From NCBI RefSeq assembly GCF_006345805.1, contig NW_021835686.1, forward strand, positions 1 to 38,175: 38,175 nt of DNA. Direction: 5' to 3'. Made by a program: the position numbers and the translations under genes. This document shows, in pieces, positions 4,626-30,542 of the stretch. The stretch is from Octopus sinensis. Lineage: Eukaryota. The notes under the pieces are model-generated. The model did not search any database. It saw only the letters and a list, made by a program, of their open reading frames with translations, and had not been told where the DNA came from. How positions within the stretch are numbered: position 1 is the first letter of the stretch; each line of letters begins with the position of its first letter.

Positions 4626-4934
4626 ATGATGAAATATGCATTGGCATTAGCTAAAATTTTCTCGCGAACCCAAAAAAAAAACAGTTCATTTTTGTTTAGA
4701 CATTCTACGTAAAGATAAGGGACCAATTTCTAGATCTCGAAGTTTAAAGGTCTGATCTCATATCTGACAACATTTTTGAATTCAGCGTCCAAAAATAATA
4801 TAAGTTACCTTTTATTATTTTTTTATAAATCTATTAATAATTTAGTTTGTTTTTCAGCTCGATTGATATTACACACGTGAAGATCTTGTATGGATCTTTA
4901 CAATTACACAAATCTTGTTTGAGGTCGACTTAAA

Positions 4935-7560
4935 CCAGGTCCACCAAATCTGGATTGCGGCAAGAGAGATCATGCCCTGGTAGTCTTTAATCCACAAAAT
5001 TCTGCGGCGTCACCGGACTGGACAAACCTGGGTTTCCCTTCGAAACGATAATAGAAGATGGCCTCCTTTGTGATCTGCCGGTTGGAAGACCGCATTTCCT
5101 TATGAACGTCCGTCGTCCAGTCTTCCACTTTCCCGTTAGCCAAAATTGGTTGCTTGTAGTCCATGATTTCCTTTTCCGCAGAAATCATGGCGGAAACCAA
5201 CAACTCTCCACTCCCTCCTTTGTCGAACTTTAACGACTTGACGTTATCGAACATCTAGAGTCGTGTACAGCACATACTTTGATGATGTTCCTGGACACAT
5301 TCGGGTCCTGATGACACATTACCAAAACTGTTAAAAGCTCACAGTTCGTCGTCGAAATAAAGAAAAACCGTAGGAAAACGTTTCGTTTTGACTCGAGGTA
5401 GTCATCAGGAATTTCTGGCATTTGTCGACTCCTGCGGCCAGACTGTTCATTTCGTTCAATCGACCTTTGACGTGACATGCAAATTTGATTCGCGTATTTT
5501 TGGCTGTTTCCCCATGATCTACCGTGGGAGGACGGGAAACCCCTTTGAAGGTCTTTCAAGGCTGTCAAAGACTTTGGCTTCATCTGGAAGTTTCATTCGA
5601 GTGTCTCCGCCAATAAAGATTCCTTCCAAGTACATCCATTTGCGCTGGACGTTGACCCACACCTTCAATTGACTGGGGACTAATACGTCGATCACTTCGG
5701 AGATCGGAGACAAGGACTTTTCCCAGTGCCGCACACTGTTGACAAAGGGAGCTGCGAATCGAGAAGCAGCCATGCTCTGCAAATTGAGGGAGTTGTCGTC
5801 GATGATTTGCAGAATGTCCTCGACACTCCAATTATTTACCCTCGATTGGTAGTGCCCTTGGTGTACATTGAAATGCTGAGGCGCATGTTCGTCCACGTGT
5901 CCTTTATCTCTTTGATTCCCTGAAATAAGAAAAGGATCGCCATTTCCTTGATAGCACATGTCACGATATTCGAGATTTCATCTTGGAAATCGTGCAAATT
6001 CATTTTAAAGACGCTGGAGAGGGGTGAACGTGTCTGGGTTGATATCGAATCTCTTTCCAGTCATTTTCATCAAGTTGTTCCAGTGCCTGGCGGGTTTATG
6101 GGGCTGAGTACCTTTCTCTCAGGGCCTCGTTCTTCAAATCAATAAAAAGGGGCAGCGATTCCTTGAATTGCTTTATTTTGTTTTTGACGATTCCCCAAAG
6201 TTTGAAGACTCTTATTTCTTTTGCTAGCTTTCTCAGCGCTTTCAAAAATTCGTCGATTTTTTCGGTCAAAGTCTGCACATTTAAATCGGACCACAATATC
6301 TCTGCCCAGGTTTCCCGCGCTTTCTACGTGAAAGGTCAAAGGTTCTGAAAATTCTCTGTTCCGAATATATTGCAAAGATTTCCCTCAGTCCTTCCACGTC
6401 TTTCTCAATTCTGTTTAGTTCGGGGTGATTGCTAATTTCCAAATCAAAGAGGTGTTCAGCATTCAAAATTTCCTGCCGTTCAGTGAACAGTTTCTCGAGT
6501 TCTCCACTGAAATCGACCAACAAACTTTCCCTAAATTGACAAAAATCAGGAAACCCGCTTCAATGTCAGTTCCACACAGCCCGGGACCGGATTCAAAGTA
6601 TCGATCGGAGAATTCTTTTACTTTGGTGGAAAACTCGATGATCGAATTTTTGGTCAGCTAATTTTAATGGCGAGCGAATACTTCAATAAAACGTCTCTCG
6701 ACAGGTGTAAGGCCCACGTCTTTGACTTTGGATTGGTACACGAGTGACTGCCATTTCTCGTTAATAGTCTCCACCAACTCCCGTTCCTCGTCTGAATAGG
6801 GGAGTTCGTACATTGACAAATGTCTAATTTGACTTTGTGATTTTTAGCGATAGCCTTCGAGGAGTTGGTATATTTTTACTTCAATCTCCAGTCTATCTTT
6901 TTTGATGTCAGAAATTGCTTTCAAGACAAATTTCAGCTCTTCCAACCTTTCGGGCTCAACCGCCAGTTGTTTGTATTTGTTCTATTGATTATCCAGTTAG
7001 GTGAACATTGACATAATCTCGGACGTGGAATAACGAGTCTCTCACCAAATCGTGCAAATGATTTCCCAGACATTCAGTCCATTTGTTTGCGTGCTTTTTG
7101 AGAGAGCCAATCAAAGGTTGCATGTTTATTCGGAGACACTCAATGTCTTGGATGTCGTTAGCTTTCTCTATTTCTTTGATGATTTTAATGTAGAGCTGAA
7201 ATTGGTCGTCAGAAGCGACGATGGACGGGCCTTTGCTGAACCATTTTTAATGATTGTTGCCTAGATGGGCTGAAAGGCTTTACTTTGTCCACTTTCAAGA
7301 TCGGCCGATATTTTTTCCATTTAGACAAATAATTGTGACTGTTTGTGATAAGTCGCTTGACGATGTTGATCGAATTCTGGTACAATTCGTTGATTGAACA
7401 CAACGTGGACAAATCCCGGTTCTTTCCGTTCGATATGTGAAAGCAAGGCAACTGCCTTACATTTAATATCAAGAACACTGTCAGAGGCGAGTGCAATGAG
7501 GTGTGAGACCACAACGACAGGTTGGACTAACCCAGAGTGGGTAATGTAGCTCAGGAGATT
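4935..7560 (-). pseudogene. DNAH10: Axonemal dynein heavy chain 10 internal fragment (tail end and linker, stops before AAA1)
   Basis: NYLSKWKKYR, DLKNEALRER, VQRKWMYLEGIFIGGD, MFDNVKSLKFDKGGSGELLVSAMISAEKEIM and YQGMISLAAIQIWWTW match DNAH10 as recalled. Micro-introns present, e.g. 5663-5686 (24 nt). Several -1 frameshifts. Both ends truncated. Confidence 0.9.
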
Positions 7561-7587
7561 AACAGAGCAATTCCTTATGCTAATGTC

Positions 7588-7696
7588 CTGAGTCATAATT
7601 TATGAACAAGACAGGATATGAGTCATAATTTATGACTCAGAAATATTTGGGTTATTGCACTGTCCAGTCTAAAATTAATTGAAAATGGCAACCCTG
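7588..7696 (-). mobile_element. Putative hAT-type DNA transposon terminus with palindromic subterminal repeats
   Basis: CAGGGTTGCCA (7696->7686) begins where NIPBL-like coding appears to stop. Followed by duplicated tgagtcataatttatga (7589-7605, 7619-7635). No partner end in the window. Confidence 0.4.
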
Positions 7697-9870
7697 TTGT
7701 TGTATTGGCGGAATGTTCTCGAATGTCTTGTACAAAAGCATAGCAACTTTGTGCTATAATATTAAAGAAGTCACAAACAGGTTGTGTTCTCAGTTTTGGA
7801 ATGATGGACGATAAATATTTCCAGATTAGTTAAAACTTGTATGCATAGCTGCACATTGTTGGCACACTCTTCCAATATTCCAAAATAAAGGACTTTTATT
7901 TCATCTTGAATCATAAATTGATGACCACGCACCAACAAATTACCTATCGATACAACACAGTGACTAACCAAGAGCCATTAAAGATACAAACCGCAGATCT
8001 GAGTCTTCAAATACACAAAAGAAGTAACAAATTTCAAATATTTTGGGTATAATCTGTTCCTATGAATGTCAAAAAACATCCAAACATTCTGAAAATTGAA
8101 AATATCGTTCTCAATGTCAAAAAACCGACAGAGAAGGGCGACGATATAAAGGGATCTCTTGACGTGAGACTTGATACTAGACTCAATAGTTTCACTCCGT
8201 TCGATCTCTTCCTTCTTAATTCGAAGAATATCTTAATTAGTGCTAATAAAAATACTGAAAAATCGATTGAAGAAATCTTGAACGAGTTTTTTGTTATTAG
8301 AAATGCGGACAATTATACTTAGACATTTGACTGAACTGCTAATGACCTAAGATGTGAACTACAAGAATACGTTGATTCCTTGGAGTAGTAGTATTCGTAT
8401 GATCTGTTCTTCCAAATGTGCTAACATTGCATCACCTGGGTGGTCAATAAGGCCTATCGTGTTCTGTACTATTTCTAATGTGCTCTGCAATATCCCACTA
8501 TCTGCCTGAACAATAATCAACAACTGAGTAACCGATCCAGCACTGCTCAAATAAGGCAGAAGTTTCATCAAATGTGGCGTCAATAACGTTGGACGAACGC
8601 GGGAAAATGTCTCAAGTGTCTCATAACATAACACCATTCTGTTTGGATGATACCCCTCCGAACAAGAGTGTCCTTAAATTGTATAAAACATACAACTGGC
8701 AATAGACTCGTCCAGTGCTATTACATTAGTTATTATACAATCAACAATCTGCAATGCTGCCTTCAAGACATTGCCACTGTTCTCCTCAGATTCTTTGAAT
8801 ACCTGCGAGTAACAATTAAAGTATACACTTCTAAGAAATGTCTCGAACCACACTCCTTCGTCTGATAGAGCAGAAACCTGAAGAGCAGTTTAAGAATATT
8901 ACTAACCACATCCGTTATGCTGATGACTCGCTTCATTAGCCCTTTGCTGTCTTTCTTGGTTGGAACCAGTCATAAAGTCATAAACACTTCATTCACCAAT
9001 TTCTTAAAAGCAGTGAAATGATCAAAACTACTTTAACAGTATCTTCGTCATTCACTCTATGTATCATGCGGACACAAATATCCGTAACCCTCGGGTGGTC
9101 TGGATAATTAGAGCAAATTTCTTTGAATATTCGAATTACTTTTTTTCTAACAATAATACTAGTATCCTGTAGTATAAGTTGATTTGAAGATACAATAATC
9201 CTTCCACACATCATTTCGTAGTACGACTCAATCAACTCTGGTTTAGTCAGAATGAAGCGACCCACCAAATCCACCACAGATTCCTGCACATTTGGAGAAG
9301 AGTCTAAAAACCGACAATTTAATGACTTTTGAACATCTTGCTTAAACATTCACACAAACATACAAACCCTAGCAAAAATAGACGAATCGACCTCCACAAC
9401 AAAATTCAAAAATTTTTCTGCCTTACTTCTCAGATTGGCAATTGGCTCACTTAAACATTGTAATATCTACTAGTGCTTTTAAGTAGTATTACTCGGACGA
9501 TGACAAATTTGAGACAACTATCGAAATTGGGGACAAATGGGCCCCGGTATTGAATGAAGACTACGCGAGAACCCACCTTCTCATGATCCAAAGATAATTC
9601 CAGTTTTTTATAAGACTGTTCTTGACGACGGACCTTGACGGACCTTGAATACCTCCATGTCCTCGTGTATGCGGGGGATTGCTATGATCATATAATCCAG
9701 TGCTTGCAGTCGGAAAACGAAGTTCTCAAGCACAACCTTATACCCGTCGTCCCCTTTATTGAAACACCGTTTTATGTACATTAGAACAAACTATAATGCA
9801 CGAGCACGAGCTGTCTCGAATAATGAGACATAATCATTCTCAAATTGTTTCTATCAAAGTGTAATCAAGG
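7697..9870 (-). pseudogene. NIPBL: Cohesin loader Nipped-B-like/Scc2, HEAT-repeat region fragment
   Basis: FRLQALDYM, SVVDLVGRFILTKPELIESYYEMM, DTSIIVRKKVIRIFKEIC, RVNDEDTVK, KRSLYIVALLCRFFD and IQVLTNLEIF align in order with NIPBL as recalled. Micro-introns, e.g. 8232-8255 (24 nt). N- and C-termini absent. Confidence 0.88.
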
Positions 9871-10159
9871 CGGTTATTGTATTTATTTCGCACATAATTG
9901 TCCACCATTTTATTACACATTGAAAAAAGAAGGTTTTCTGACATTTAGAGTTTATTCTATATTAAAAATTGTTTTAAATTAACATACTTTATAAAATTGA
10001 CGGCAAAATATAATGCACTACGTAAAGACTTGTTTGTTCAAATTTCCAGAATTTATTACTCTAAATTTACTTAAATTTAAAATAAATTAAAACATTTGTA
10101 ATATTATATAGCAAACAAATGTTATTTCAAAGAAAAGATTCTATAGACTATTTCAATGG

Positions 10160-10603
10160 TAAGCCCGTTACGGTTTTCATTGTCCGCTTCCACTAATTTC
10201 GTCAACTCTGTTCTTTTTCCCTCTTCTGAACAGTGCGAGTTGTTGGAATATGCGGCTGGTGTCAACGTGTGGGTTTCTCGGGGGCTTAAAGTCCCGGACA
10301 TTCCGTCGGCTCAAAAGAACTGGGACAACATTTATTGTTCTCACATAATTGAAGATATCCGGTCACACGCCGATTAGTTTCAGTTGGCAAGCATTAATTG
10401 TGCTTGTCAACCGCATTCGGGAGATTAGTTGAATGCGTTACCGATCTCGTCAGCGAGCATGTTCCTGGACGACGAATCGGTCCGCATCGGAATCTGTTTA
10501 CGGCTTGGCATAGAGATTTGCCAGCCGCACCATTGCAGATGTGAACAACTCATTGACAGGAGAGGTTTACACCCTCTCTCTTGTCGCCTCAGTGCCGGCA
10601 GGG
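10160..10603 (+). mobile_element. CRE-like non-LTR retrotransposon fragment, cut after the zinc knuckle
   Basis: LNALP...FLDDESVRIGICLRLG..ICQPHHCRC...GLHPLSCRLSAGR; same family as 34904-36091. Confidence 0.85.
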
Positions 10604-11761
10604 GAACCCTTCTCTTGGGGCTGGAAAATACACCTCCATGTGGCAGTTGGTCATCATCCTTGTCTTCAAATTTGTGTTCACGGTGACCACGTTTGGACTG
10701 AAGGTGTTGTGTGGGCTCATTCGAAGGTGCCTGCTGGATTATTCATTCCCACGATTTGTGCGGGGGCAATAATGGGGCGAATCGTGGGCATAAGAGTGCA
10801 GCAGATTGCCCGGTTGGGGACTGTGGTCATTGTAGGACGTTCTACATCAACTCGACTTCTCTGGTGGCTGTGATCAACCCCGGAGTGTACGCGCTTGTGT
10901 GAGCTGCCGCCACACTTGGGGGGTCACCCAAATGACTGGTGTTATTGAGTATTTATAGTAGTGTCCCTGGTGGTGATTATGTACGAGATGACTGGCGGGA
11001 TTTCTTACATAATCCCCATAATAATGGCCACCATGACCAGCAAGTGGATTACTGACTGGTTAGGGAAGGAGGGGATGTAGGCACTGCTTTTATTCCATAG
11101 AAACGACCGACACATCCACCTGAACGGCTTCCCCTTCCTCGACGGAAAGGACGAGATTTCCGAGAGTGGCACGGCCAATGACGTTCTCCACGCAATGTTT
11201 TGTTGGGTATTCACTCGCAGGGACAACTCGGCCGAACTGACTGTCATTGAGCAGAACAAAATGACCATTTCCGAAATCAGTATTCATTTCTCTCCATTTC
11301 AGAACAAATTCTCGAGGAAACGAACTACAACGGATTTCCAGTGGTCGTGTCCAGGCACTACAAAGTGTTGGCGGGGTTTGTTTATCGAAGAGACCTCGAA
11401 TACGCACTGGATACACCTTCTACTTAATGACAGACCGATTGAATGGATTTTCCGACAGCATAATCGTCTATTTTTCTGGTCCTCGCCCGGAACAGCACAA
11501 GTCGGTCAGACTCTCGTCATCCTCGACCAGGTCAGGTCTTTGGGCCAACCACAGAGTCCAATGACAATGACTGTGTTCGGGTCTATCCACATCACGTTGG
11601 AAATGTTCCAAAAGTTGGGAATCCGGCAAGTTTTGATCACCAAAAATAAGTGCGTATATGGTAAGACTGTCGTGTAGTGAGGTGGTGGGAATCATCACCA
11701 AAAAAAACTTTGTCACTATATCGGGGACCTCCGTCTGAGGAACAGACTTCTCAGAAGTTAA
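10604..11761 (+). pseudogene. CLC-3/4/5-type chloride/proton exchanger, C-terminal half with both CBS domains
   Basis: FGLK|VPAGLFIP, PGVYALV*AAATLGGVT, LNGFPFLD, NYNGFPVV, FQKLGIRQVLIT, GIITKK. Introns 10704-10726 (23 nt) and 11531-11554 (24 nt), among others. GGA->TGA stop at 10900-10902. 5' half missing. Confidence 0.92.
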
Positions 11762-12116
11762 TTTTTATTTAATAAAATTAATATACTTTCTACATGGGTA
11801 CATTTAAGCATATGGCTAGAGATGTAGAGAAAGCAGCACTTACTAAAGAGCATCTTCTCATACTGGTTTTTGGTCCTCATTTTTGGAGGCCATATTCTTG
11901 GTTGTCTTCGAGACATCTCTATTTCGGTGATTTGGAGGGATTGGTCAACAAATCTGACAAGAATGCTGACAACGCTCACTTTTCTAATGGATCTTAACGC
12001 CTTTAAGGAAGATTGCAATAAATGTGCCAAAAATATTTGACCTTGTACACTGATTTTCAGATCACTTTTAAACGGTGTTATAACATACCTGACTTGTTTG
12101 TGTATCGTAAGTATGT

Positions 12117-12586
12117 CAAAAAGTAAATGGTTGGGGACTTACACCAATTCGACATTCTCCTTGCAAAACGTGCAAAACTTCTTGATCAGTAAACACAAGC
12201 CAATTAAACTTTTTACTTGACGTCAAAAAGGCTAGTCTTAAACAAAACCTTTACTTAATTTTCAACTAAAATTAGACAATTTCCTCAAATATGTTCTTGT
12301 TCTATTCGATCAGGGCCATTTACTATCGCCTCATTTGATGTTAGAGGACTAGCAGCGAGTTCAAAAAAGTAAACCCTGTACAAGGATCGTTATGAAATGG
12401 ATGCATGTTGTCTTCAAGATACACAAGTCGAGGGAGGATGACGTTTTCGGAAAATACCACCTAATATACTAACGTCAAAGTGCCGACACTACAAAGAACA
12501 TTGCACAAGCGAAACAATAAATACTGTTTATTGGTAACGCAAACGTCCTATAACTAACTAACAAAAAGTAAATGGTTGGGGACTTA
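12117..12586. repeat. Perfect 25-bp direct repeat pair
   Basis: caaaaagtaaatggttggggactta at 12117-12141 and 12562-12586. Confidence 0.9.
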
Positions 12587-13130
12587 AATTAATGATGGCA
12601 TTGTTACTCAAGATAATCCGCATTGAAGTCATTCGATGTGAACAACGACACGAGGAAAAATGGAAACATACAAAGAAACTCTCTTAGGAGATACAGAAGA
12701 CATGATACGAAGAAAATCACTAGAAACTTTTGCGCTTAAAAGATTAAACAACGTATGGTTGAGAGGTAAACAAATTTCTGCGTCTTAAAAATCAAACTAT
12801 ACAATATGTTCGTAAAACCAGTCTTATTGTACAAATCCTCCTCTTGGGCACTCACAGTGCACGAAATGGAAAATCTGAATTTCTTCCATAGAATGCAGCT
12901 GAAATACATTCTATAAATCTTTTGGCCAAAGCCCATATCAAACAAACATCTCTACTCCAATTACAATGTACATCCTTCGGACGAAGAAATAAGAAGTAAT
13001 AGATGAGGCTTATCCGGTCACATCATAAAAATGGACAGGAAAACTCCCGCAAATCTCGCAATGGAACACCACTACGCTCCTCATTCGGGAACGACCTTCC
13101 GAGTAAGACCACGAATTAACGGGACTACGC
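12285..13130 (+). mobile_element. RTE-like LINE relic (APE start plus RT C-terminal region, internally deleted)
   Basis: 12285-12495 is homologous in DNA sequence to ~4135-4350. 12840-13075 encodes WALT...FHRMQLKYIL...SNKHLY...GHIIKMDRKTPANLAM, typical of the RTE C-terminus. Confidence 0.7.
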
Positions 13131-13329
13131 TAAAAAGAAAAATGTTGAAGATCTTTTTATTTTACCGTGTTTACAACAACGCGGGAGCCGATTGGTTTAT
13201 CTATCCATTAATGCAAATAAATCTGAAATTGTGAATATCCACCTTCAACAAAGTTTATTCTCTGCCGCCTCTTCTGTTTGCCGCAATATTTTTCCAGACA
13301 TTCGTATTACCGAACTTTTTTAATTTAAA

Positions 13330-14080
13330 GACTTTATTTGAAAGGGAAAATCGAAAAATTAGTCATTCCTTTGGACTGTCTAGCGGAGATAGAGACCCAT
13401 GCTCGTTCTCTACGCTTGATGTCTTACGAAGGCGTCAAAAAAATTGAATTTCTCTGTTGCCGGAATTACTTTATCGTGAAAAGTGAGGTCGTAGGAAAAG
13501 TCATATTAGAGTGCGATGTCTGCAAGTTTTCTCTTTCACTTAAAGTTAAGTTGTTTTAGTAATGGTTTAGACCCGAATGAGCGGTTTCAAATAGATCTTA
13601 TTGATCTGAAAAGGTTTGAAAACGTTAACGGAGAATACAAATGGATTCTATCCGTTATTGACGTCTATAGTCGGTTTTATGATTATAATTATCATAGTTT
13701 TGCTTTTTCTAGGCCACTAATTAATAAGTCAGGAGTCGAGGTTTCAAAAAATCTCGAGTCCCTATTTTATCTAAACGGTCCCTGTCAGATTCTACAATCC
13801 GACAATCGGACAGAATTCGGGTTCTTTGCGAGTTCAAAATTCAACAGATCCACGGCAGTTTTGATTTTTAAATCAAACAAATTCAGGGAAGGCCCAACAA
13901 TCCACGGACACAAAGGATTGTAGAGAGATTCAACCACCAACATTTAACAAGAAAGTTACCAAAAATGCTTGATAACAGCGAGAAAAAGTGGATAGTAGAA
14001 TTAGAAAGATGTGTGTACAGTTATAGCATCTCTGTACATTCATTTTCTAATGAGAGCCCCTTTGAAAAATATAGGGGAAT
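13330..14080 (+). mobile_element. rve/DDE integrase element (Ginger/KRBA2-like), intron-containing, degenerate
   Basis: CxxC zinc finger (ECDVC), ERFQIDLIDL, WILSVIDVYSR|FAFSRPL, ILQSDNRTEF, IVERFN. 24-nt intron at 13674-13697. Confidence 0.85.
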
Positions 14081-14149
14081 TAGGGGAATAAATCCAATAA
14101 TTGATGGTTATATATAATTATGTTTTAGAATCTAAAAATTGACACTGGG

Positions 14150-15350
14150 TGCCGTTTTTTAACAACGAATGGAACCTTAAATACTGTTTCATCGAATTCA
14201 ATAAAAATGCTGTGTGTGTCATATGCAATGACAAAATTGCAGTTATGAAAGAATACAATATTCGACGTCACTATGAAACCAAACATGGACAAACATATTC
14301 ACAATTAACGAGTGATGTCCGTTTAAAAAAATTTGAATCACTGCGTCGAATTTTATTATCTCAACAAATAATGTTCAAAAGAAAATCTAATGAAAATGAA
14401 TCAATTACTATGGTAAGCTATAAAATAGCTTATCTCTTGGCTAAAAATTCAAATGTCTAGATGACCAGAATGTCGATATAGAAACGTCAAGTGGGTGGCT
14501 TTCAGTATAAATGTTTCTCCCAAAAGTAAAACACAATATTGCCTACTGCAGGACAAAAATCTGTTCTTTTCAACCAAGGGAGCATTGTGCAATCATTGTA
14601 TGAGAAGCAAAAAACGGTTGGGCATTTGGCAACAAAAGTTTAATCCAACAAACCAGACTATGACAAAACTAAACAAAAGATAACCCTAATCGACGTTGGC
14701 ATCACTTCCAAAATCGCCTCAAACAAGTCGAAACCGAGAAATTTCATAATATGATATGCTCGCATGATGCAAAGGTAAACGAACTTTCAATACTTTATGA
14801 TGCAAAGGTAAAGATTATCCCGGTTGTCTTGGATGGCGTTGCTTCGAGATACTTCAAATTAAATAGTCTAGTAACTAGACTTCTTGTTTAAAAAGTGTAA
14901 TTTCCACCACATCGAATGTTGATATGAGTTATAAAGTGAAAATAACAGGATTATAGTTAGAGACACGTTTTGAAATTTTTCGTGAACTTGAAAAAGAATT
15001 TACTGTTTTTCGATTACCATTCATTGCAAATATTACAGATCTTGCAGCTAACTTACAATTGGAAATTATTGATTTGAAATATGACTCAGATATGAAAAAT
15101 AAATTTACCATGGTGGGCTTAGACACCTTTTATAAATATCTCTTGCCGAAGTATCCCAACTTAACAGCCTTAGCTGCGAAAATCTTGTCAATGTTTGCAA
15201 GTACATATCTAAGTGAACAACTTTTCTTTTAAACATAAACAAAACAAAATTTCGATCAAGGCTCACCCACACTCATTTAAGCGATATTCTAAGATTGACG
15301 GTAACTCAGGATTTCACTCCAGATATTGACACTATTATAAAGAAAAAAAG
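14150..15350 (+). mobile_element. hAT transposase relic (GTF2IRD2/SPIN-like), internally deleted
   Basis: N-terminal VCVICNDKIAVMKEYNIRRHYETKH and C-terminal dimerisation region QLEIIDLK...YPNLTALAAKILSMFASTYLSEQLFS...SRLTHTHLSDILRL. The catalytic core is absent. Confidence 0.85.
14500..14880 (+). mobile_element. R4/Dong-like RLE retroelement fragment inside the hAT relic
   Basis: CLLQDKNLFF...CNHC...GHLAT, NKPD, TLIDVGIT remnants with many lesions. Confidence 0.7.
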
Positions 15351-15539
15351 AATAACACATTTATAACTTAGATGAAAATATTGACGCATCGTTAGAAACA
15401 AATAACACTATTTTTAATTTTTCGCCCACAGATATGAATTCATCGTATTTTAAAAGAATAAATAAAAAGATGGGAGTGCACATATCGAAGTATGATTTTG
15501 AAGAATGGAATGACGTGTAATTAATTAGTAACATTATAG

Positions 15540-16390
15540 GTTCGAATATTAAAAGATTATGGAACAAATCCATCATTAAAACTAAGCAGATTTGAATCCC
15601 CATATGAAGAAAAGGAAACAGTGAAAGAAGGTCGCTGCATGTGATCTCGCATAAAGGGATAAACAAAATAGAATTTCTCTGCCGTCAAAACTACTTTATT
15701 ATAAAAAGTAGCGCTATAAGAAAAGTTATTACTGAATGTGAGATATGTAAGTTTTCCCTCCCTCTTAAAGTTGTCCTTTTTAAATAACGTCTTAGACTGT
15801 TGACGAGAATAATCATGTTTTGGCCACCGTTCCAAATGAGCGTTTTCAAATTGATGTGATAGATTTGAAAAAGTTCCAAAGTGTCAACCAAGGATATAAA
15901 TCCGTGATTAATATTTATAGCCGGCATTAATTTATATATAACCAAATTAGTTTCGCCTTTGCAAGGCCATTGTTTAATAAGTCGGCAATTGAATTATGCC
16001 ACAATTTGGAGGATCTTTTCTACGTACATAAGCCATGTAAAATTCTACAGTCGGACAACGGGACAGAATTTAAAAATGCAGAAATTCAAAGTTTATGTCA
16101 AAGGTTCAGAACACTTCACATTCATGGAAGATCAAACAATTCTAGATCTCAGGTTATTCTACCAATTAATTTTTAGGGTATAGTGGAACGTTTTAAACAA
16201 GCGATAACAAGATCAATCGCCAAACATTGAAGCGCTTTATCAATTTGAGGGAGATGACGAAAACGAGGAAATAGATTATAAAATCATTGAAAATCTCAAA
16301 AAAGCGGGAGAAAAAATGATAAAAAAAGATGGAAATTTGACGAAGAAGATATCGAAGTGGAAGACTCAGTAATTTTGAGAAACGACATGG
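15540..16390 (+). mobile_element. Second rve/DDE integrase element, degenerate, two micro-introns
   Basis: YSR|FAFARP, KILQSDNGTEFKN, HIHGRSNNSRSQ|GIVERFKQ. Introns 15924-15950 (27 nt, GC donor as assembled) and 16153-16176 (24 nt). Confidence 0.85.
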
Positions 16391-16394
16391 GCAG

Positions 16395-16504
16395 AATCGA
16401 ACCTTTCAGTAGGATCTCCCTCGCTTGAATCGGGGACCGCGGGGATTATAATAATTAACTGGCTTACCCGTGTTTGGTCTTTAAATAAATAAAAAAAATA
16501 AATT
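16395..16504 (+). mobile_element. Second copy of the TAA-tailed retroelement 3' end
   Basis: gaacctttcag.aggatctccctcg...ataattaactggct...cccgtgtttggtctttaaata matches the 3' part of 90-251. Confidence 0.85.
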
Positions 16505-17438
16505 GGTGATTTACGAAACAAAGCTGTAGAAGAACTTGCAAAAAATAATCAGATTGAGAATTCCGCTTTTAAATATTGGTATCAATGCCAGGACTGCAAA
16601 TATTACCAGTTTTTTGATAAACCACAAAGATCGCAAAAAAAAGGAAAACCATTTGATAGACTCAACTAGACTCTAGTCGATAAATCAATAACAACAGTCA
16701 CTCCGGTCAATTTAGGCCCCCAAAAGAATTTGAGGCTCGAGGACGTAATTAAAGAATCAAAGCGAAAGAAAGGCAACTTCATAGTTTATAAAAATGATAG
16801 AATAGACCAAGGGGTTTCCGATTATAACAATTTAGCCTTTATGTATTGTCCGGCTCATTCTGACGACATCAGAACAGAAGAGCTTTTAGTGAGCTCTGCA
16901 TGGGAGTCATTGATCCCCAGAGAAAAGATAACGGGAAAAATCTACTCTTGGCAGCAGGAATTTTTCAAGCTGAACTGTTACATCAGAGATTATGAGAACA
17001 GATCATCTGAGGTAGTCAGGTATCAAGGTGTGATCAGGATTACTGATGAGTTCTCCTTTGTTTTATGCAACTTCTTTTATGTGGAATGCCTTATGGATGA
17101 TCAGATGGCACTATTATTCCTCGATACTAGTTTTATTCTCTACATCGCAAAGACATTGGGTAGATTCGTCAACCCAAGTTACTTCACAAAAGATTTTTTA
17201 CCAAATCACTTTTCCAACTGGGAAGCTTGTGGTCCTCCTTATATCAAGGCGATCTATTAATCTTCGCCATAAGAGGGGAGTAGCAGAAAAAGAGGGGCAC
17301 AACTGCGCCAGGTTAGTCACAGGATATGCAAAGTATTTGGATGAAGTGGTTAAACAAAGATTTAAGGTGGACAAGAATTGGTTTTCACACGTGGAGAAAG
17401 CAGTGGGGAAGAGATTCGTCAGGTGTAGCCCAGACTAG
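16505..17438 (+). other. Orphan intronless reading frame, ~310 codons, one TAG and one frameshift
   Basis: Frame from 16505 continues into the 16730-17260 ORF with one internal TAG near 16667. A shift near 17255 leads into NLRHKRGVAEKEGHNCARLVTGYAKYLDEVVKQRF...PD*. No family recognised. Confidence 0.5.
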
Positions 17439-18249
17439 TCACCACTTCTGCCTCCACTTGATTCCGTATATTATCACATCTGGCATGGAGCCATCGAGCA
17501 CACTCCCCACACTTCAACAGCAATTCCCCTTCTTTGGTGGGCGCATTGCAGCATGTTTCAACTTAGCTATCTTTAATTTCTTTCTTGTTTAATGAACAAA
17601 GCAGTACAAAAAAAAATTGTTTGAAGTTTATCGATAAATTGACAGATTAACATTAATTGAAGGTCTGTGTAACGCGCATCGCATAAGTATCAATTTGCCC
17701 ATGTCACATATTACATGACTCACCGAATGAACAAATGATAACGAAAAAATCGTCAATCGAATAAAAATTTTTAGTACTTAAAAAATGTTATTTTTATAAA
17801 AATGAAGAAAATTTCAGGCAATTTTACAAAATTGATGCCCCAAATGAAGTTTATACTGTATATAAAAAACTTAACTAGTCGTGGGAAAACGACAAGTATA
17901 TGAAAAAGTACCAAAAAATGATTAAAAATTGAATAAATAAATATTTCAAAAAATATTAGCGTTACAGAAATTTCAAAATGCGTAAAAGAAACAAATTATA
18001 GGAATAAATTCGAAAAATATCACAAAGTGATGAAATTTCAAATAATTTAATCATTAAAAGAAACTGCATCTCGAAATATTCCCACTAAATCCAATTATAT
18101 AAAAAATTAAGAAAAGGGTTAATTATATAAACATCACCACAAGGTGAATCAACTGCGTGCTCACATGTGGAATAATTTATTAGGTTTACCATTAAAAATT
18201 AGGATAATTAACGATAATTAATAAAAAAATAAACTATATTCTAATACAC

Positions 18250-19140
18250 AACATTGCCAAGTAATTCTGCGAATTACGCAAGAACTGCAGAGTCAGACAC
18301 TTGTTAATGTACCTATTGTATTAACATGGGATGGGCTGGTTACTCAAAAATTCCTACAATCTGCACTTTTTGATCAATCAGGTCTTTTTGGGAGATCATC
18401 ACAATCTCTATAAGCAGATTGTGCTTCTCATGTCCGCCTCGTTACTCTGGACTTTCGTATTTGTATTTATTGTTGTATCGATACGAATCTTCACAGAGTA
18501 ATTCGCACTCTTCGACTAAAAAAAATAGATTTTCAACCTTCGATTTCGTAATTCTATACTACCTGCACAACATAGTTCACTGTGTCTTTGTAAATAGTCA
18601 CTAGCATTCAATCACACCTTGTCGCCAAGTGATCAACCGTCTTCTTGGCTGAGTTACAATGACTGCACATTATTCCAGCATTATAAAAAATAGAATACTT
18701 TTCTGTATGAAACAGAGAGCCTTCACTGTTTTCGGTAAGTTTTTTCTATGCAATAATCAACTGGAAAATTAGATCATTTAAAAAATCTGAGAGAGTTGCA
18801 TGCAATTGCTTGTTCTTTATTTGCTCAATCATAAAGTTCCTCTGCAATTCTTTCAGCATGTTCAAAAAAAGATTCCCATTTCATGAAATGTATATTTGCG
18901 CTTGAGGTATTCCGTGATTGTAAGCAAATAGACCACTCCCGGGCATTGTTTCCCCTCCCCATTTTTTTTGTTGTGTGGCCGATTAAGACATCCGGTTCCG
19001 CAGCGATAAAACTGATGACGGCGTCAGTCGTCAATCCGGGTGCATATTGGATACATTGATCCTTCAAGGAGTCTATTAGTCTAAATGATGATGAGCCCTT
19101 TCTTTTAATACAATCCCGTCTCTCATTCAGCAAATTGGAT
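18250..19140 (-). mobile_element. R4/Dong-like RLE non-LTR retrotransposon 3' fragment
   Basis: KMGRG, IKNKQLHATL, MCSHCNSAKKTVDHLATRC and KIRIDT remnants. Confidence 0.75.
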
Positions 19141-19519
19141 TGTATAATTTGATGTCTCAGACAGTTTATGAATTTTTTGCTTTTATATTATTTATAATTA
19201 CGAAATGAACAGAAAAAGTAACTTTCTAGCAAAGTAAAATGGAAATTACATAATCCAACCAAAATAATCCGAGTAGGAATAAAGCAAAAAAAAACTTTAA
19301 AAGTCTATCAATTAAACATTCCATATGCCCATACGCGGAGCAGTTACTCCAGTTTAGGGATCGGTTTTTGATAATCAAGTTTTCTCAATGTCGCTTTCAC
19401 CCATTTGTTAATCGCCTTTCATACATAATTCTGAAAGTCACAAATAAAAATAATTAATAGTTATTCAGTTTTCGTTTTCGTAATTCTTAGTATTTTGTTA
19501 CATCAACGTCACCCTCTTA

Positions 19520-20380
19520 GGGCTCACCTACGTTCAGTGAACGAATGTCCAGATTCATATCAACGCGAGTCTAGATTCAGTAGCTACCTTCTCAACAGAC
19601 ATTGAAAACCCGTGCCTTGTCTCGGCTTGCATGCTTTCTAAGGTCTTCCGCAACACCAGTGTCTGAATCTATGCCTTCGCCCTTTCTTCCACGACAAGCG
19701 CCTTCAGGCGGGTTTTAAAGAATTTTGACACAAATCCGTCCAAGGTCATAATGACAGAGACGATCTTCACTTTTGCGCGGTGGATCGCTTCCAGTTTTTT
19801 CGCCATCAAGTCGTATTCCACTTTGACTTGACTTGCCAAGTTGCAGTGACTGCATTTATTCTCTCCGTTATTGAAAAACAAATTTCGGTCTTGCAGTAGT
19901 GACAGGCTTGGGGAATTGTTTCCATGGGTTAACAACCCGCAAGCATAATTAACATCAACTTCAGTATTTTTTATGCATTGAAACAAAATAGATTGGAAGG
20001 GCTTCTTTTCAATTTTTTCCCATAAATATTCACGTTGAATTTTCAGCAGGTCCGATACTGTCAATTCATATACATTTTCATTGTATTTTCAAGATAAGAA
20101 TTCTACGGTAGTGGCCATATGTGTTTTCTTTGGATTAATGGACGCAGAATTTCTGTTCTTTTTAGGCAGTATTTCAAATCACTATAAAATTGAAGAAGCA
20201 TTCTTCCCGCTTTATTGCTAACTGACTCCAGGCTACTCCCAAATTCCTTTCTTAAAAGATAAAGTCTTTTTTGCCGGTTTCAAGTGGATATGACTGTCCA
20301 TAAGAATTCGACCGATATTCTTATCAATCACTCTCCTTGCTCAATCACTTCTATTGATTTTAACTTGTCCTGAAATATAG
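19520..20380 (-). mobile_element. R4/Dong-like RLE element fragment with internal deletion
   Basis: RLYLLRKEFG..LESV, LLQDRNLFF..KCSHC joined directly to KVEYDLMAKKL..KVKIVSVIMTLDG, then IQTLVLRKTLES. Confidence 0.85.
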
Positions 20381-20826
20381 GTTTTTTAATTAAATATTAG
20401 ATTTTTATTTATGATATGAATACTGGAGTACATACTGTGATCAGTATTACGCCAAATATAGTCAAAATCAATTTGTTAGAAAATATCATTTTATTTTTTC
20501 CCCATTTTTTCTTGAATGTCAAATATGTAAGAAAGTCGTGACAAAGATCAGGAAATAAGGAAAGTTAAATTAATCATAAATTAATCGGCCAGCAAGCCGG
20601 ATGGAACAGCTGTTCCCGCGCACAACGGCCAACAGGATCCTTTGGATTAGGAATGTAAATTCCCTAGGATCCTTGGAGCTTGAATGTTAACTTGAACTAT
20701 ATTTTTTAAAATCAATATTTTCGTAAAAAAATACAAAGTAATTTATTTAATAAATAAAGTTTAATTATTATTAGCATATTGATTACTATTTAAATAATTA
20801 AAAAAGAAATTGTTTTGTGGACGCAC

Positions 20827-25269: not shown

Positions 25270-25289
25270 CGAGTTACTCCGCTCAAATT

Positions 25290-26130
25290 TGATATATTTT
25301 TCCACGTCTTTCTTGGTGGTCGCACACTTCTTCGCAATGGCTATCGAAAGGGAACAATGGTCTACGAAGCGAGGCATTGTACTGTCTTTTGCAAGATAGG
25401 AATTTGTTCTTTGCATACACGGGATCACTATGCGTCCACTGCAAAAAAAGCAGGCAGACTGTTGACCATCTAGCCACGCGGTGTGGTAGGATGCTAAACA
25501 GTGATTATTTCCGAAGACACAACGAAGTGGTAAAGTGTATTTATCACCACTTGTGTCGAATGTATAAAATTAAACGAAGTAGGAAATTGAAGGGACATTC
25601 GGTTGTGTCAATAATGTCGACCCAAAATGTCGAAATCAGAGTTGACAATTCAACTGACAATTGCAGAGTCATTATGACTGAAACGAAATTTCAATTCAAT
25701 AAACCTGATATTTTCGTTTATGACAAGAGGAAAAGAGAAATTCATTTAATCGAAGTGGGAGTTACCTCGCAAGACCGTTTAAAGCAAGTTGAAGTGGAGA
25801 AATTTCACAAATACGACCTGCTTGCAAACGAACTGTCGGTTCTCTATGAAGCAAAAGTGAAGATTATTTCAATTGTCTTAACATGGAATGGAGTTGTCTC
25901 AAGGTTCTTTAAAAGTCATATGGACAAGTTATCCATTGAAGAAGGAACGAGGACATACATCCAGTCGGTTGTGCCGAAGAGGACTCTAGAGAGTATGCTT
26001 ATTGAACACAGACATGGGATAAAGGTGGACAACGAGGAGTACGCCTCTGCCGCCAATCAACTTGCGGAGCTGGCATGTCGTGAGGACACTCAGCTAAACA
26101 ATTACTTTGACGCAGAAATGAAAAAATGAT
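25290..26130 (+). mobile_element. R4/Dong-like non-LTR retrotransposon 3' part (CCHC knuckle plus RLE)
   Basis: 250-aa ORF 25377-26129: CVHC..TVDHLATRC...RRHNEVVKC, NKPDIFVYDK, HLIEVGVT, EKFHKYDLLANEL. Confidence 0.92.
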
Positions 26131-26285
26131 AAGAATTTTGTTGCAAACTCTTCTTCCAAGCAAAGAAGAGAAACCACTGACGATCTGGATTCTTAAATAA
26201 TTTAAGATAGAATTTACATAATTATTATTAACTTTCATTGTTAAAATTTGCTAATATAAATAATAATAATTTGATCGTATTTTCA

Positions 26286-27880
26286 ATGTCCAAAGTCGAC
26301 TGCATCACTGAAAATATTAATTTAGATCTAAATGAGGAAGAAGGTCACAATATTCGCCAAAGAGTTGAGAAAGACGATTCCCCCACAGGGTTATCAGTCG
26401 AGGAGATTTTGACTCAGTCAAATACTCCATTCTGGAGAAGGGTAGTGCTTTTAAGATTATTTGTAGCTAAGATATGGTCTGCTGGCCTTGTTTGCATTGG
26501 TATTTGTCGCATTGATTATATCCGTGGTTGTTTTGGTGACTACTAACCCTATCTGTACTGTTCCCTGGGATCAAAAATGGTACCAAAACTCCGTCATTTA
26601 CCGAATTAATGTCAAATCTTTTTTTGACTCTGATAATGACGGAATTGGAGACTTAAAAGGTCAAACATTCAATTGACATTTCTAGGAATTATTCAAAAAT
26701 TAGATTATCTTAAATCTCTTCATGTTGGTGCAATTTGGATCGAAGTTTTCAAAACAACCGATGTTTTTGAAAAAAATTTGGTCCCTACGTTGGAGCCGTA
26801 TAAAGACCTGGCTATTTTAAGCAAAGCATTACGCCAATATGGTTTGAATTCACTATTCTAAATTGACAGACATTAATCTCCTAATTGACTTCAAAACAGA
26901 AAATATGAGCAATGCTGAAATGAAATCTGCATTGTTGAAAGTGGTGTATTACATCGACGGAATTGTTTTAGACGACCTTGATCCGAATTTATTTTCTTCC
27001 GTTTACCAAAACTTGAAAAAAGTCCTTCCATCGGACAAGTAGTGATACATTAATAATTTTCAGGATAATTGCAATGCAGTTAAAAACTAACATGCAAGAG
27101 CACAAAGAGCTTGATTTAATTATTAGTAAATTCGAATGCACAACCGTATCCCAATGCTCTCAAAACATCAAACAAGACGGGACTCGCTTTAGCACTAAAC
27201 CTTACCGAGCTTATACAGTCTAACCAATTATTTAAATCTGTTTAGATCAGTGATGAAACCAATTCACCCTCACGCAAAAACTTAAGTTTACCAATGTTCT
27301 TCCAAGGGTGGTCAATCGTCATAAATTATGGAGACGAACTCCTCTCGGTACCAAGTAAGGGATGTTTTTATTTAATAAAAGCTACTGTTATTCTCATGGA
27401 TAGTCAGCCAATCATGAATTGGAATGATGGAGCCGTAAGTAAAGGATTTAGCTCATCTCAAATAACTAATTTTGGATTTTCACGTAATTTCTTCATGCAC
27501 GGCCTAAAAGTTGGAATTTGATAAAAATGTAAAGATTCAAACTGCTGCTGAAACTGAAATTAAAGGATTCTCAACCATTTCCTTTTATCTGGACATTTAT
27601 AACCAAGATACATTCAAATGGGGAAGCTATAATGTGAATTCTGAAAACGATGTGATTATATACACTGTGAAACGGGACGGATTTCAGTCATACTTTATTG
27701 CAGTTTCTTTAAACAATCAATCAATATCAATGTTCTAACGTTGTTTTAACTGTAAAGGATGTCGCGAAGATAACTCATGTTTCACATGGAATGATTATGA
27801 ACATTGACGGGACAAAAAATTCTGTGGAACTCAAAAATCTATTCATCGAAGCCGGGGATATATTATTAATAACTTACTAA
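26286..27880 (+). CDS. SLC3-family heteromeric amino acid transporter heavy chain (rBAT/4F2hc-like)
   Basis: GLSVEEILTQSNTPFWRR|LRY, one TM helix, KWYQNSVIYRINVKSFFDSDNDGIGDLKG|IIQKLDYL, NYGDE. Introns 26442-26466 (25 nt) and 26660-26685 (26 nt). Stop at 27878-27880. Two apparent 1-bp frame slips in the 3' half. Confidence 0.85.
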
Positions 27881-28128
27881 CTAGCTTTCCGAGGATTAAT
27901 AACAAAATTAAAAAAATACTAATTCGTAATAACAAGAGAAACCATAAATTACCTTAGATTTCTTTATTGTTCTTTTCATTGGCTTGAGGTTATCGTTTAG
28001 AACTTTTGAAGAGCGCATATTAGTGACTTTCTAGAAGTCGATAATCCCACAAAAAACACAATTTGCTGTCCATAATTAAAGAATTAAGATTTAAATAGCA
28101 CCAAAATAATTTAAACAAGTATGATTAG

Positions 28129-28965
28129 TTAAAGTAACTCAGTAAGAGGGGCCTCTTCGGTAAGGTACAAATCTTCTTCTTTTGCAAAGTCAGAAACAAG
28201 GATAGTTTGTAAAAAGATCGAAAAGCGTTCTGAGGTAATAGAAAATGAATTTACTTGAAAGTTCCTTATATTTTGAATTTTTTGAAATTCCTTTGACAGT
28301 AATAAAGTAAACTGGGGTTCCAGCCAGAATGATGAGGAAGGCTCATCCACACCACTTTGGTTTGGAATAGAGTGTGATTGAAAGGAGATAGATTGAGACC
28401 ATTATAAAGAAAATTGAAAAAAATATATTGACCTGTTACTTTAAATGCTGGCTTGTATTCCTTGCCGTACTTTTTCATGTAAAAAATAGTGGAAATTGTC
28501 AACGCCTGGAACAGAGTTTCAGCAAAAGTGGTAAAATTAACGATCGAATCAATATCATTAGCTGAGACAATGATGAAGGAAGTCAGGGCCTACAGTGATC
28601 ATGTTGAGATACCGTAAAAATCAGGGGGACTGCTGGTGTCTTCAGATTTATTGTGACCAGGGAGAACAACCGAAGAAGATTTCCGTCCCTTCCTGCAGCA
28701 AAAAAAGCTCTGAAAAAAAATAAAATAAAATTACCTCCACAAAGACATAATCCTCCATTCATACTCCCAAAGGTCGAGAGGGTGACAATGGGAAGGATTG
28801 TATACATTACTGTTGATATTTCTTTTCCAAAAGACTAAAATATTGAAAAATGAAGAGAGAACTAATCCAATTGTGCTGGTCGCCAAAAGTTCTTGTTTGG
28901 GGATGACAACAAAGTAGGCCAGGTTGACAAACATATATATTGCTATGATGGAGACCACCGAGAAG
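28129..28965 (-). pseudogene. SLC7 (LAT/b0,+AT-type) light chain, C-terminal half
   Basis: IYMFVNLAYFVVIPKQELL, LSTFGSMNG, FFAAGRDGNL, KTPAVPLIF, IILAGTPVYF. In-frame TGA at 28343-28345; terminal stop at 28129. 5' half replaced by SMC4 sequence. Confidence 0.88.
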
Positions 28966-29465
28966 TCTTTCCAACACGTGTTCAGTTCTTTTCTTATCGG
29001 TCCCCAGTCCATCAAACTATCCGAAATATTCTGTCTTTGAACTTCCAGATCTTCTTCACCAACTAAGAATTGTCATTTTATATCATACAGTCTCCAGTTT
29101 CTGCTCGGAAATCAACAATGTACTTGAATTGGCTCCTTTTTGGTAGTCAACCGACGATAATCCCATTTTGTTACTCAACCTTCTACTTCCACCACCACTC
29201 AATGTTCCTATATCGATTAAGAGACACAATCTACCAGATGTTTCTATTAGTTGTCCATCCAGGGTCACTACTCGGTAACGAACACTTCCGAATGCCACGG
29301 AAGATGCCTTGTCGATGTTATCTGTCACCAACGTGTTTCCAATTGCAAAGAAAAAGGCAACGGAGAACCGTTCTTCTGTTGGTGTAATCAGGTCAAACAG
29401 CCTCTGCGACCCTTCCGGCCTAAATACAATGATTGGCCACAAAACTACACTTTCACTCTCTTTGA
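28966..29465 (-). pseudogene. SMC4: Condensin SMC4 hinge fragment
   Basis: PEGSQRLFDLI...AFFFAIGNTLVTDNIDKASSVAF..RYRVVTLDGQLIETSG|TLSGGG. Introns 29208-29234 (27 nt) and 29063-29088 (26 nt). Confidence 0.88.
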
Positions 29466-29469
29466 ACTA

Positions 29470-30110: not shown

Positions 30111-30542
30111 TTTTTTATCAATAAAGGTGGTCTCAGCGAGTAAGAGAAACAATAATTATTTCGCAAAAATTCAGAAATTTTTGAAATTTAAACTCAATTA
30201 CTAGAGATTTAATAAGTGCGAGTCCTTAATTAGTTTTTTTTAATCAAATTATGACGTTCTCTAGTGAATTGAGAATAGTGATGATTTGTAGATGGGATGT
30301 TAAAAAACATGATCTCGGTTGTAGCAGGAAAATTTTAATATGAAACAGAAAATATGATTACTTTCAAAAAAATCTTTATATTGCCCGACCAAGCCTCATT
30401 TAAGTTATATTTCAAAGTTTAAAAATCTATTAAATATTCTAACAATGTCACTTTTGTCACCTTGTTTATAGATAAATGTCAATGTACCACTTTTGGTCAT
30501 AAAATAACGTAAAATAGCCCCAAATATTGTTAGTTGTTAAAT

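Follow-up and report, generated by a model that had tools for sequence, protein, structure and literature searches.

In this work we describe a block of DNA (4935..29465) that holds truncated pieces of six genes, DNAH10, NIPBL, a CLC-3-like channel, MON2, SMC4 and an SLC7 transporter, within a window of 38,175 nucleotides (the whole stretch analysed, from contig NW_021835686.1 of the Octopus sinensis assembly). Truncation and at least one frame-breaking change are found in six of six pieces, and a nonsense codon in four. They are young, unprocessed pseudogene pieces, about 1% from the functional state. On balance, and with a modest lean, we think that these are DNA-level duplicates that lie beside a satellite under no selection and have been eroded and fused through deletion and end joining. 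The block looks like a dumping ground of a sort known from other genomes rather than a working gene-shuffling system. The features are listed here in order of position.

249..2535, no strand: 496-bp tandem satellite, 4.6 copies; flanks the mosaic and lies outside the finding
4137..4660, plus: 5′ piece of an APE-endonuclease LINE (Pfam Exo_endo_phos, E 9e-5); 72% to 12284-12492; 3′ part gone
4935..7400, minus: DNAH10 (axonemal dynein heavy chain) stem and linker fragment; both ends cut; 11 introns
7397..7405, minus: direct NIPBL-to-DNAH10 junction; the NIPBL match stops at ~7402 and the DNAH10 match starts at 7415-7397; no transposable element (TE)
7402..9454, minus: NIPBL HEAT-region fragment; both ends cut; 13 introns; possible reach to ~9790
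10150..10603, plus: decayed non-LTR piece, presumably CRE-like by its motifs; in-frame stops; 3′ end gone; joined to CLC
10604..11760, plus: CLC-3-like 3′ fragment; own stop codon kept; 9 introns; PDB match
12284..13140, plus: APE LINE lacking its middle, with a putative C-terminal part; a 25-nt exact copy of 12117-12141 lies in the join, at 12562
13429..14117, plus: rve integrase piece (Pfam rve and Integrase_H2C2)
14143..15340, plus: hAT transposase remnant (Pfam zf-C2H2_12 and Dimer_Tnp_hAT)
19579..20088, minus: RLE non-LTR piece; aa 17-56 run directly into aa 165-252, an internal deletion of ~108 aa
20828..25290, plus: MON2 fragment, from the start codon to ~aa 1630; 3′ end absent; ~21-24 introns
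25293..26200, plus: 5′-truncated non-LTR copy, probably RLE by its zinc-knuckle and endonuclease motifs (Pfam just E 0.095); open 278-aa frame; 3′ end kept
26286..27880, plus: SLC3A2-like gene (Pfam SLC3A2_N and Alpha-amylase), start to stop; 8 introns
28127..28964, minus: SLC7 3′ half; own stop codon kept
28965..29466, minus: SMC4 hinge fragment (PDB, E 6e-16); 3 introns; 1 probable frameshift; joined straight to SLC7 at about 28965 with no TE
29470..30122, plus: 5′-truncated RLE copy adjoining SMC4; 3′ end kept

The identity of the gene pieces comes from domain, structure and homolog matches. DNAH10 shows Pfam DHC_N2 in five frames and is among the named homolog matches; the piece spans aa 688-1419 of P0023, a partial homolog; of the AAA-bearing homologs P0001 and P0027 it matches just aa 13-285 and 30-583. 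The NIPBL piece (PDB matches, E 5e-23 and 1e-4) corresponds to about aa 657-1203 of a 1652-aa chain, and frames upstream of 9454, 5′ in the gene sense, gave no NIPBL homology. The CLC-3-like piece begins at aa 492 of 818, MON2 (Pfam DCB and Mon2_C plus homolog P0042) covers aa 15-1630 of 1864, the SLC7 piece (Pfam AA_permease_2, E 0.0017; PDB match just E 0.11) starts at about aa 272 of 523 and the SMC4 piece is aa 702-785 of 1305. A preliminary description had each gene cut in mid-gene; all six are indeed truncated, but CLC, MON2 and SLC7 have one cut side only. Its statement that the absent parts do not resume stands for the window, where there is no second DNAH10 or MON2 homolog match by tblastn and CLC, SMC and permease domains do not occur again, in a search that took in 240 of the 242 frames of at least 55 aa and is a weak test for NIPBL. 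The SLC3A2-like gene, which that description lacked, is apparently complete inside the block, with one doubtful frame change near 27730. The frames at 3564, 11761, 16670 and 18828 gave no identity in the searches made.

All six fragments keep their micro-introns, as had been proposed: there are 62 modelled introns, of which 58 are GT-AG introns of 20-31 nt, although the 21 in MON2 rest mostly on a codon-model parse with a preference for 22-27 nt, and are therefore partly circular. The pieces fail as retrocopies or LINE-mRNA chimeras, as introns are present and SMC4 is antisense to its RLE element. The median intron is 24 nt (quartiles 23/24/26), and two introns of 27 nt, which keep the frame, appear as gaps of 9 residues in comparisons with solved proteins. 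The supplement row for Dicyema japonicum gives quartiles of 23/24/25, and among animals introns this short are reported in myxobolids and Dicyema only (PMC13644364). The window itself gave no sequence match to a dicyemid. A myxozoan source, raised by the intron size, was judged less likely; myxozoans are not known to have axonemal dynein. From the 24-nt median and the axonemal dynein, a dicyemid source is likely rather than proven.

The lesions differ from piece to piece. DNAH10 carries ~9 one-base frameshifts, a nonsense codon (5838) and two altered donors (6847, 6352); the adjacent NIPBL has no one-base frameshifts (p 0.005), with one nonsense codon (~8971) and two frameshifting templated insertions at 7589-7636. 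In the CLC-3-like piece we find a nonsense codon (~10900), three frameshifts and an altered donor (11411), and in SLC7 a nonsense codon (~28344), an intron shortened to 7 nt (28439-28433) and a probable frameshift. MON2 has 2-3 frameshifts and no stop codon was found in it; the count is a lower bound because the codon-model parse masks frameshifts as false introns (1 in DNAH10 against ~9 by homology). Part of the seed stretches of this parse, and part of those from which GC3 was taken, lay out of frame, which makes the GC3 values approximate. Frameshift lists for NIPBL and MON2 from single-homolog spliced alignments were too noisy and were excluded. In total there are 4 nonsense codons, 3 altered splice donors, ~17 one-base frameshifts and templated insertions, although some one-base changes may be read errors, and the divergence from the functional state is about 1.0% (95% interval 0.4-2.1%). 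Lesion loads that differ several-fold between pieces suggest different ages.

Functional split or scrambled genes, restored by trans-splicing or programmed DNA rearrangement, are scarcely credible here. Each of the six is normally an important single-copy gene, and most splice sites are intact, yet the pieces break within exons, four hold nonsense codons, NIPBL and SLC7 have multi-base lesions and the junctions have no pointer-like repeats beyond chance.

The cuts had been placed mostly at transposon remnants. Three of the seven junctions are at TEs (10603, ~25290 and ~29468), which is the level expected by chance (P(>=3/7)=0.71), given a TE share of 47% in the non-gene DNA. Two others (~7400 and ~28965) are gene-gene fusions without a TE, and two (~4930 and 9454-9790) adjoin DNA without a recognised match. 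A hAT-like end had been placed at 7696, but NIPBL continues to about 7400. The supposed hAT end is the end of a NIPBL exon, followed by a 24-nt GT-AG intron (7692-7669, minus strand); the reading frame is open across this intron, and the model has 544 codons against 547 residues in the solved chain. A search for a partner to the 7696 motif, allowing up to 2 mismatches, gave 5 matches where 5.95 are expected.

Direct or inverted repeats between junction neighbourhoods are no longer than in random pairs; inverted repeats in 55 junction pairs run to 8-13 nt against 8-15 nt in 58 random pairs. The direct-repeat comparison found no target-site duplications around the cassette. Terminal inverted repeats flanking captured pieces were not found in the window, Helitron-like 3′ ends (hairpin and CTRR, strict pattern) number zero on either strand and no Rep or helicase Pfam match appears in 240 frames. 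Together with the chance-level TE adjacency, the TE-free fusions and the reassigned hAT end, this leaves the earlier suggestion of TE-mediated shuffling unsupported. That transposon capture (Pack-TIR or Helitron) or retroelement template switching built the mosaic is likewise very improbable, and for this window largely refuted. In its favour, three junctions do adjoin non-LTR pieces, including two RLE 5′ ends at which MON2 and SMC4 may have lost sequence as the RLE inserted, there are remnants of hAT and integrase elements, and Pack-TIRs exist in animals, as PMC8277862 describes; set against this are the null results above, the retained introns, the antisense SMC4 and the CRE piece, which had already decayed where it meets CLC.

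The transposon pieces carry a record of loss of their own. The CRE-like piece matches aa 3-61 of a 208-aa frame at 35407. The integrase piece has a relative at 15608-16380 (64% aa identity). In the hAT remnant just 500 nt separate the N-terminal zinc finger from the C-terminal dimerisation region, and between the hAT ends sits a 3′-truncated RLE piece (14522-14858) in which aa 25-55 are followed by aa 131-207, with ~75 aa missing. TEs next to gene pieces have lost hundreds to thousands of bases from within, and these deletions also account for the lost LINE 3′ ends. Such loss had been remarked on before and is real, but it affects a minority of the non-LTR pieces, 5 of 18 in the window and 3 of 8 inside the finding, a tally that leaves out one ambiguous 45-nt piece. 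Over 5 copies the satellite departs from its consensus by 66 substitutions, 9 deletions and 4 insertions. Neither the satellite nor the window yielded a tRNA or an Rfam match (E up to 1), and two common telomere motifs had no matches in the window.

Short copied tracts are in excess. Local exact repeats of at least 16 nt number 3, where 100 null simulations gave 0.05 on average and never more than 1; tandem duplications number 4, where 0.4 are expected and 20 simulations gave at most 2. Templated copies occur in the LINE deletion join (12562) and within NIPBL (7589/7619). The deletion-to-substitution ratio implied for DNAH10 is about 0.2 (by hand), between the satellite (9:66) and a pair of RLE copies (10:31), the latter being 29470..30122 and its inverted sister at 30541-30872.

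By intron GC the gene models form two classes, one at 0.42-0.44 and the other at 0.21-0.28 (chi-square p 6e-10). The NIPBL-DNAH10 fusion joins both classes (p 2e-5); MON2 differs from SLC3A2 (p 3e-6), while SMC4 and SLC7 do not differ clearly (p 0.36). One unlikely reading of these data is an assembly or library chimera, perhaps of two co-sequenced dicyemid species, one AT-rich and well polished, the other GC-rich and poorly polished. One-base frameshifts are indeed commoner in the GC-rich class (15 in ~8 kb against ~3 in ~5 kb) and lie mostly in short base runs, as in a poorly polished long-read consensus, and one RLE copy shows 10 deletions over 340 nt when set beside its sister. However, the frameshift rate per kb in GC-rich MON2 is as low as in the AT-rich class, and templated insertions or multi-base intron loss occur in NIPBL and SLC7, which are AT-rich. 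Local exact repeats, tandem duplications, a 7-nt SLC7 intron, the nonsense codons and the altered donors are not usual products of read errors. Random ligation should also sample mostly working genes, yet four of the six pieces have nonsense codons. Finally, the window contains no N bases and no matches to the three adapter motifs checked, and the gene-gene joins have no common repeat that could mislead an assembler.

The same composition data bear on a second, rather unlikely reading, in which one colinear block, a degenerating homologous haplotype or a single segmental duplicate, was eroded in place. NIPBL and DNAH10, and likewise SMC4, SLC7, SLC3A2 and MON2, would already have been neighbours, fused by deletions of ~3-5 kb. 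This fits the co-oriented genes at both direct fusions, the SLC3A2 and SLC7 3′ ends, which lie tail to tail across an intact spacer of ~250 nt, and the ~1% decay, which is close to the 1.24% heterozygosity given for D. japonicum in PMC6736024. It sits badly with the sharp differences in intron GC (not seen for SMC4 and SLC7) and with the several-fold differences in lesion load. The nearly intact MON2 and apparently complete SLC3A2 do mean that part of the block could be a native locus.

The retained introns, the inactivating lesions, the internally deleted neighbouring TEs and the 496-bp satellite 2.4 kb away support a sink of duplicated and deleted DNA-level copies, as first proposed. We infer the duplication, because no parent copy was found; intact parent genes would lie elsewhere, because the genes are essential. 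Three homolog searches and one exhaustive protein search gave no close relative of the fragments, the best identity being 60%. That value came from the DNAH10 exon query, with 39 matches from 194 candidates in a length range that does not take in full-length dyneins. The MON2 exon query gave none among 1782 candidates in one search and 9 distant matches in another, and the NIPBL exon query gave 2 matches among 160 candidates.

In the duplicate-and-erode explanation that we favour, the block would be genuine genomic DNA free of selection. Copies made at the DNA level, several kilobases long and taken from gene-dense sequence in two or more neighbourhoods of different composition, would land near the satellite amid old transposon debris. 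Double-strand-break end joining would then delete hundreds to thousands of bases per event and fuse whatever sequence came next, gene to gene or gene to transposon, leaving short templated insertions. Meanwhile new RLE retroelements would insert and point lesions would build up. The same deletion process is seen in TEs of which both halves survive (two RLE copies and one hAT). We infer that the joins formed in vivo through end joining and that the pieces derive from several sources. Inserts templated by sequence close by have been described as a sign of polymerase-theta end joining (PMC4490562), but the enzyme is not established here, because the kilobase losses far exceed the 7-13 bp deletions given there as typical of Caenorhabditis elegans.

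Several known systems are similar. The pericentromeric segmental-duplication mosaics of PMC2566985, formed by duplicon seeding and swapping, also place partial DNA-level gene copies beside satellite with later LINE insertions, although the pieces here are 0.5-4.5 kb in a micro-intron genome and are known from sequence alone. B chromosomes (PMC6316868) and songbird germline-restricted chromosomes (10.64898/2026.02.16.706238) are described as gathering genes and gene fragments of the standard chromosomes, many truncated or with stops and frameshifts; however, both are defined by a supernumerary or tissue-restricted state, which lies beyond what sequence can show. The scars of polymerase theta share inserts identical to nearby sequence at deletion joins, but are mostly much shorter. 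Pack-TIR, Pack-MULE and Helitron capture (PMC8277862) also sets intron-bearing host gene pieces beside transposon sequence, but with the terminal inverted repeats, target-site duplications or Helitron ends that the block lacks. By analogy, then, the block resembles pericentromeric, B-chromosome or germline-restricted mosaics. No such mosaic in a dicyemid was described in the literature searched, which covers subscription journals thinly.

It is also possible, but quite unlikely, that the block is germline-restricted or somatically eliminated DNA, or re-ligated excision products, tied to developmental genome rearrangement in dicyemids. Chromatin elimination and extrachromosomal circles have been reported in this group (as cited in PMC6543705), the songbird chromosomes are rich in truncated pseudogenes from other chromosomes, and seven junctions within ~1% decay is a high density of rearrangement. 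The sequence gives no direct sign of this, junction repeats are at the level of random pairs and the dicyemid source is itself no more than likely; moreover, PMC6543705 describes the circles as mostly non-coding or mitochondrial and doubts diminution there. We give equally little weight to a stronger form, in which a germline-limited or continually rebuilt dicyemid compartment re-ligates pieces excised in developmental rearrangement and the window is a sample of it. In that form essential-gene fragments would be joined at a rate of roughly one junction to 17 substitutions, well above what passive decay gives.

As most likely read, the block would mean that a very compact parasite genome still keeps a region in which essential genes become duplicated, broken and joined. 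Regions of this sort raise gene counts and mislead annotation. Kilobase joins this dense, set against ~1% point decay, indicate strong pressure towards deletion, and this is relevant to the shrinkage of such genomes. If the block were germline-restricted, the question of chromatin elimination in dicyemids would become directly testable, and if the rebuilt compartment were real, the window would be a first sequence handle on eliminated dicyemid DNA and on the joining of its cut ends.

The six gene fragments within 4935-29465 are genuine. We scanned 240 of the 242 stop-to-stop frames of at least 55 amino acids against Pfam and positioned exons by comparison with homologs and solved proteins, which gave six gene pieces and a seventh gene.

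4935-7400, minus: DNAH10 fragment, stem and linker only (residues 688-1419 of the homolog P0023)
7402-9454, minus: NIPBL fragment, about residues 657-1203 of a 1652-residue chain
10604-11760, plus: CLC-3-like channel (CLC) fragment, from residue 492 of 818 to its own stop
20828 to about 25290, plus: MON2 fragment, from an ATG start to near residue 1630 of 1864
26286-27880, plus: SLC3A2, the seventh gene, reading from start to stop; one change of frame is doubtful
28127-28964, minus: SLC7 fragment, starting near residue 272 of 523 (a weak match that Pfam backs)
28965-29466, minus: SMC4 fragment, hinge (residues 702-785 of 1305)

Each of the six matches only part of its homolog or solved chain. 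AAA-bearing dynein homologs match the DNAH10 piece no further than the stem and linker, and the Pfam Mon2_C match in MON2 spans 593-654 of 819. The six models retain 62 introns, of which 58 are canonical, so the pieces are DNA-level; on truncation and introns the preliminary description was right. The SLC3A2-like gene and SLC7 are arranged tail to tail with about 250 nt between them, and we take them to be the heavy and light chains of a heteromeric amino-acid transporter.

The same description had the genes cut mostly at transposon (TE) remnants, including a hAT-like end at 7696. Instead, a NIPBL exon ends at that site and is followed by an intron of 24 nt. The reading frame continues across the site without a stop and stays colinear with the solved chain (544 codons for 547 residues); in the window, partners for the motif do not exceed chance expectation. 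NIPBL joins DNAH10 directly near 7400, as SMC4 joins SLC7 near 28965. The seven junctions comprise three at a non-LTR piece, two gene-to-gene and two at unidentified DNA. In our own annotation TE pieces make up 10,191 of the 21,883 non-gene bases, so three TE-adjacent junctions are what one expects (P=0.71). The longest inverted repeats, 8-13 nt in 55 pairs from 11 junction or boundary points, agree with those of 58 random pairs, 8-15 nt. Short minus-strand frames at 4850-4935 and 9790-9945 adjoin the DNAH10 and NIPBL ends; these could be ends of further genes, giving extra gene-to-gene joins.

The gene pieces are young pseudogenes. DNAH10, NIPBL, CLC and SLC7 contain nonsense codons, three splice donors are altered and one SLC7 intron is reduced to 7 nt. 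A divergence of 1.0% (0.4-2.1%) follows from seven lesions of the substitution type among about 690 target sites, assuming equal rates. One-base frameshifts number about nine in DNAH10, three in CLC, one each in SLC7 and SMC4, and at least two or three in MON2; NIPBL has none, and carries two insertions instead. Their patchiness (DNAH10 versus NIPBL, p 0.005) and their location in short base runs resemble an unpolished long-read consensus, which counts against reading them as decay. However, deletion-to-substitution ratios are similar in repeats of the window, at 9:66 in a satellite and 10:31 in an inverted RLE pair.

Intron GC falls into two classes, 0.42-0.44 in DNAH10, CLC and MON2 and 0.21-0.28 in NIPBL, SMC4, SLC7 and SLC3A2 (p 6e-10), which suggests that the pieces may derive from more than one source neighbourhood. 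Two co-sequenced species would also fit these classes, which leaves some probability for a chimera. For the right-hand part, erosion of one colinear block is plausible, given that both direct fusions are co-oriented and that the introns of SMC4 and SLC7 fall in the same GC class.

Further features of the window are as follows.

249-2535: 496-bp satellite, 94% matches between copies
3564-3944, plus: 126-aa frame
11758-12280, minus: 126-aa frame that runs towards the CLC stop and probably has an intron upstream
13429-14117 and 15608-16380, plus: related zinc-finger and rve integrase pieces
16500-17440, plus: broken, apparently intronless frame of ~300 codons, CxxC motif near the start
18825-19187, minus: 120-aa frame
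29782-30122 and 30541-30872: inverted RLE 3' pieces with 418 nt between them
31290-31600: AT-rich 21-bp minisatellite and, in inverted orientation, a partial copy of it
32634-32984 and 33281-33613, minus: two intronless frames in tandem that resemble dynein light chains (Pfam E 3e-10 and 3e-6)

The satellite has no Rfam match, and its last partial copy has five deletions within 297 nt, where the other copies have 0-2. The frame at 11758-12280, which matched nothing in Pfam or PDB, may be another gene fragment; those at 3564-3944, 16500-17440 and 18825-19187 have no significant Pfam match. Both dynein-light-chain-like frames look intact. No reverse transcriptase lies near the integrase pieces, which we take to be possibly Ginger-type DNA transposons. 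The RLE and CRE names of non-LTR pieces are putative and follow from sequence motifs, with a weak endonuclease match as the only Pfam support.

Deletion has scarred the transposons too. From the interior of one RLE copy about 75 residues are missing, and from that of another about 108. In a hAT, 500 nt separate the first domain from the last, and a 3'-truncated RLE piece lies in the gap. The inverted RLE pair differs by 31 mismatches and 10 deletions, all deletions on the second copy. The middle of an APE LINE is gone, and the join contains 25 nt identical to a stretch 445 nt upstream. Local exact repeats of at least 16 nt number three (null mean 0.05) and short tandem duplications four (0.4 expected); with a threshold of 13 nt, the six repeats observed do not significantly exceed the null (mean 2.6, maximum 7). 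Inserts templated in this way have been described as a mark of polymerase-theta end joining and are common to both systems, although the deletions described there are small (PMC4490562). The reported loss of LINE 3' ends is real in 5 of 18 non-LTR pieces, few enough that ordinary 5'-truncated insertion followed by deletion suffices. Two short element 3' tails, at about 90-253 and 16389-16506, are 82% identical and end in A-rich repeats; one of them splits a satellite unit, as a 5'-truncated insertion normally would.

The DNA of the window is eukaryotic: its genes are those of an animal, and its introns are very short (quartiles 23/24/26 nt, 70 modelled introns). A supplement row of PMC13644364 gives 23/24/25 for D. 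japonicum, and the available part of that source names only myxobolids (medians 22 and 27) and Dicyema as animals with such short introns. Flatworms gave the best named protein matches to the axonemal dynein piece. Axonemal dynein is not known from myxozoans, and its presence here favours a ciliated dicyemid. The protein searches returned no close relative of the encoded proteins, so we only infer this taxon. The D. japonicum genome has 49% repeats and 1.24% heterozygosity, and such a mosaic is not described in the accessible portion of that paper (PMC6736024).

We lean towards an unselected sink of DNA-level duplicates. Gene duplicates would be held without selection beside the 496-bp satellite, where deletion and end joining would wear them down and fuse the remnants. 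This keeps the sink of the preliminary description and drops its TE-bounded shuffling. Pack-TIR capture, as outlined in part of PMC8277862, does not describe the block, nor do Helitron capture (no Helitron-like ends were found in the window), retrocopy origin or functional split genes. The block would work like pericentromeric duplication mosaics (PMC2566985), B chromosomes (PMC6316868) and germline-restricted chromosomes (10.64898/2026.02.16.706238), as the available parts of these sources present them. Dicyemid chromatin elimination and DNA circles are reported, as cited in PMC6543705. It is improbable that the block is a compartment confined to the germline and built from chromosome pieces ligated back together; if true, this would be of high interest.
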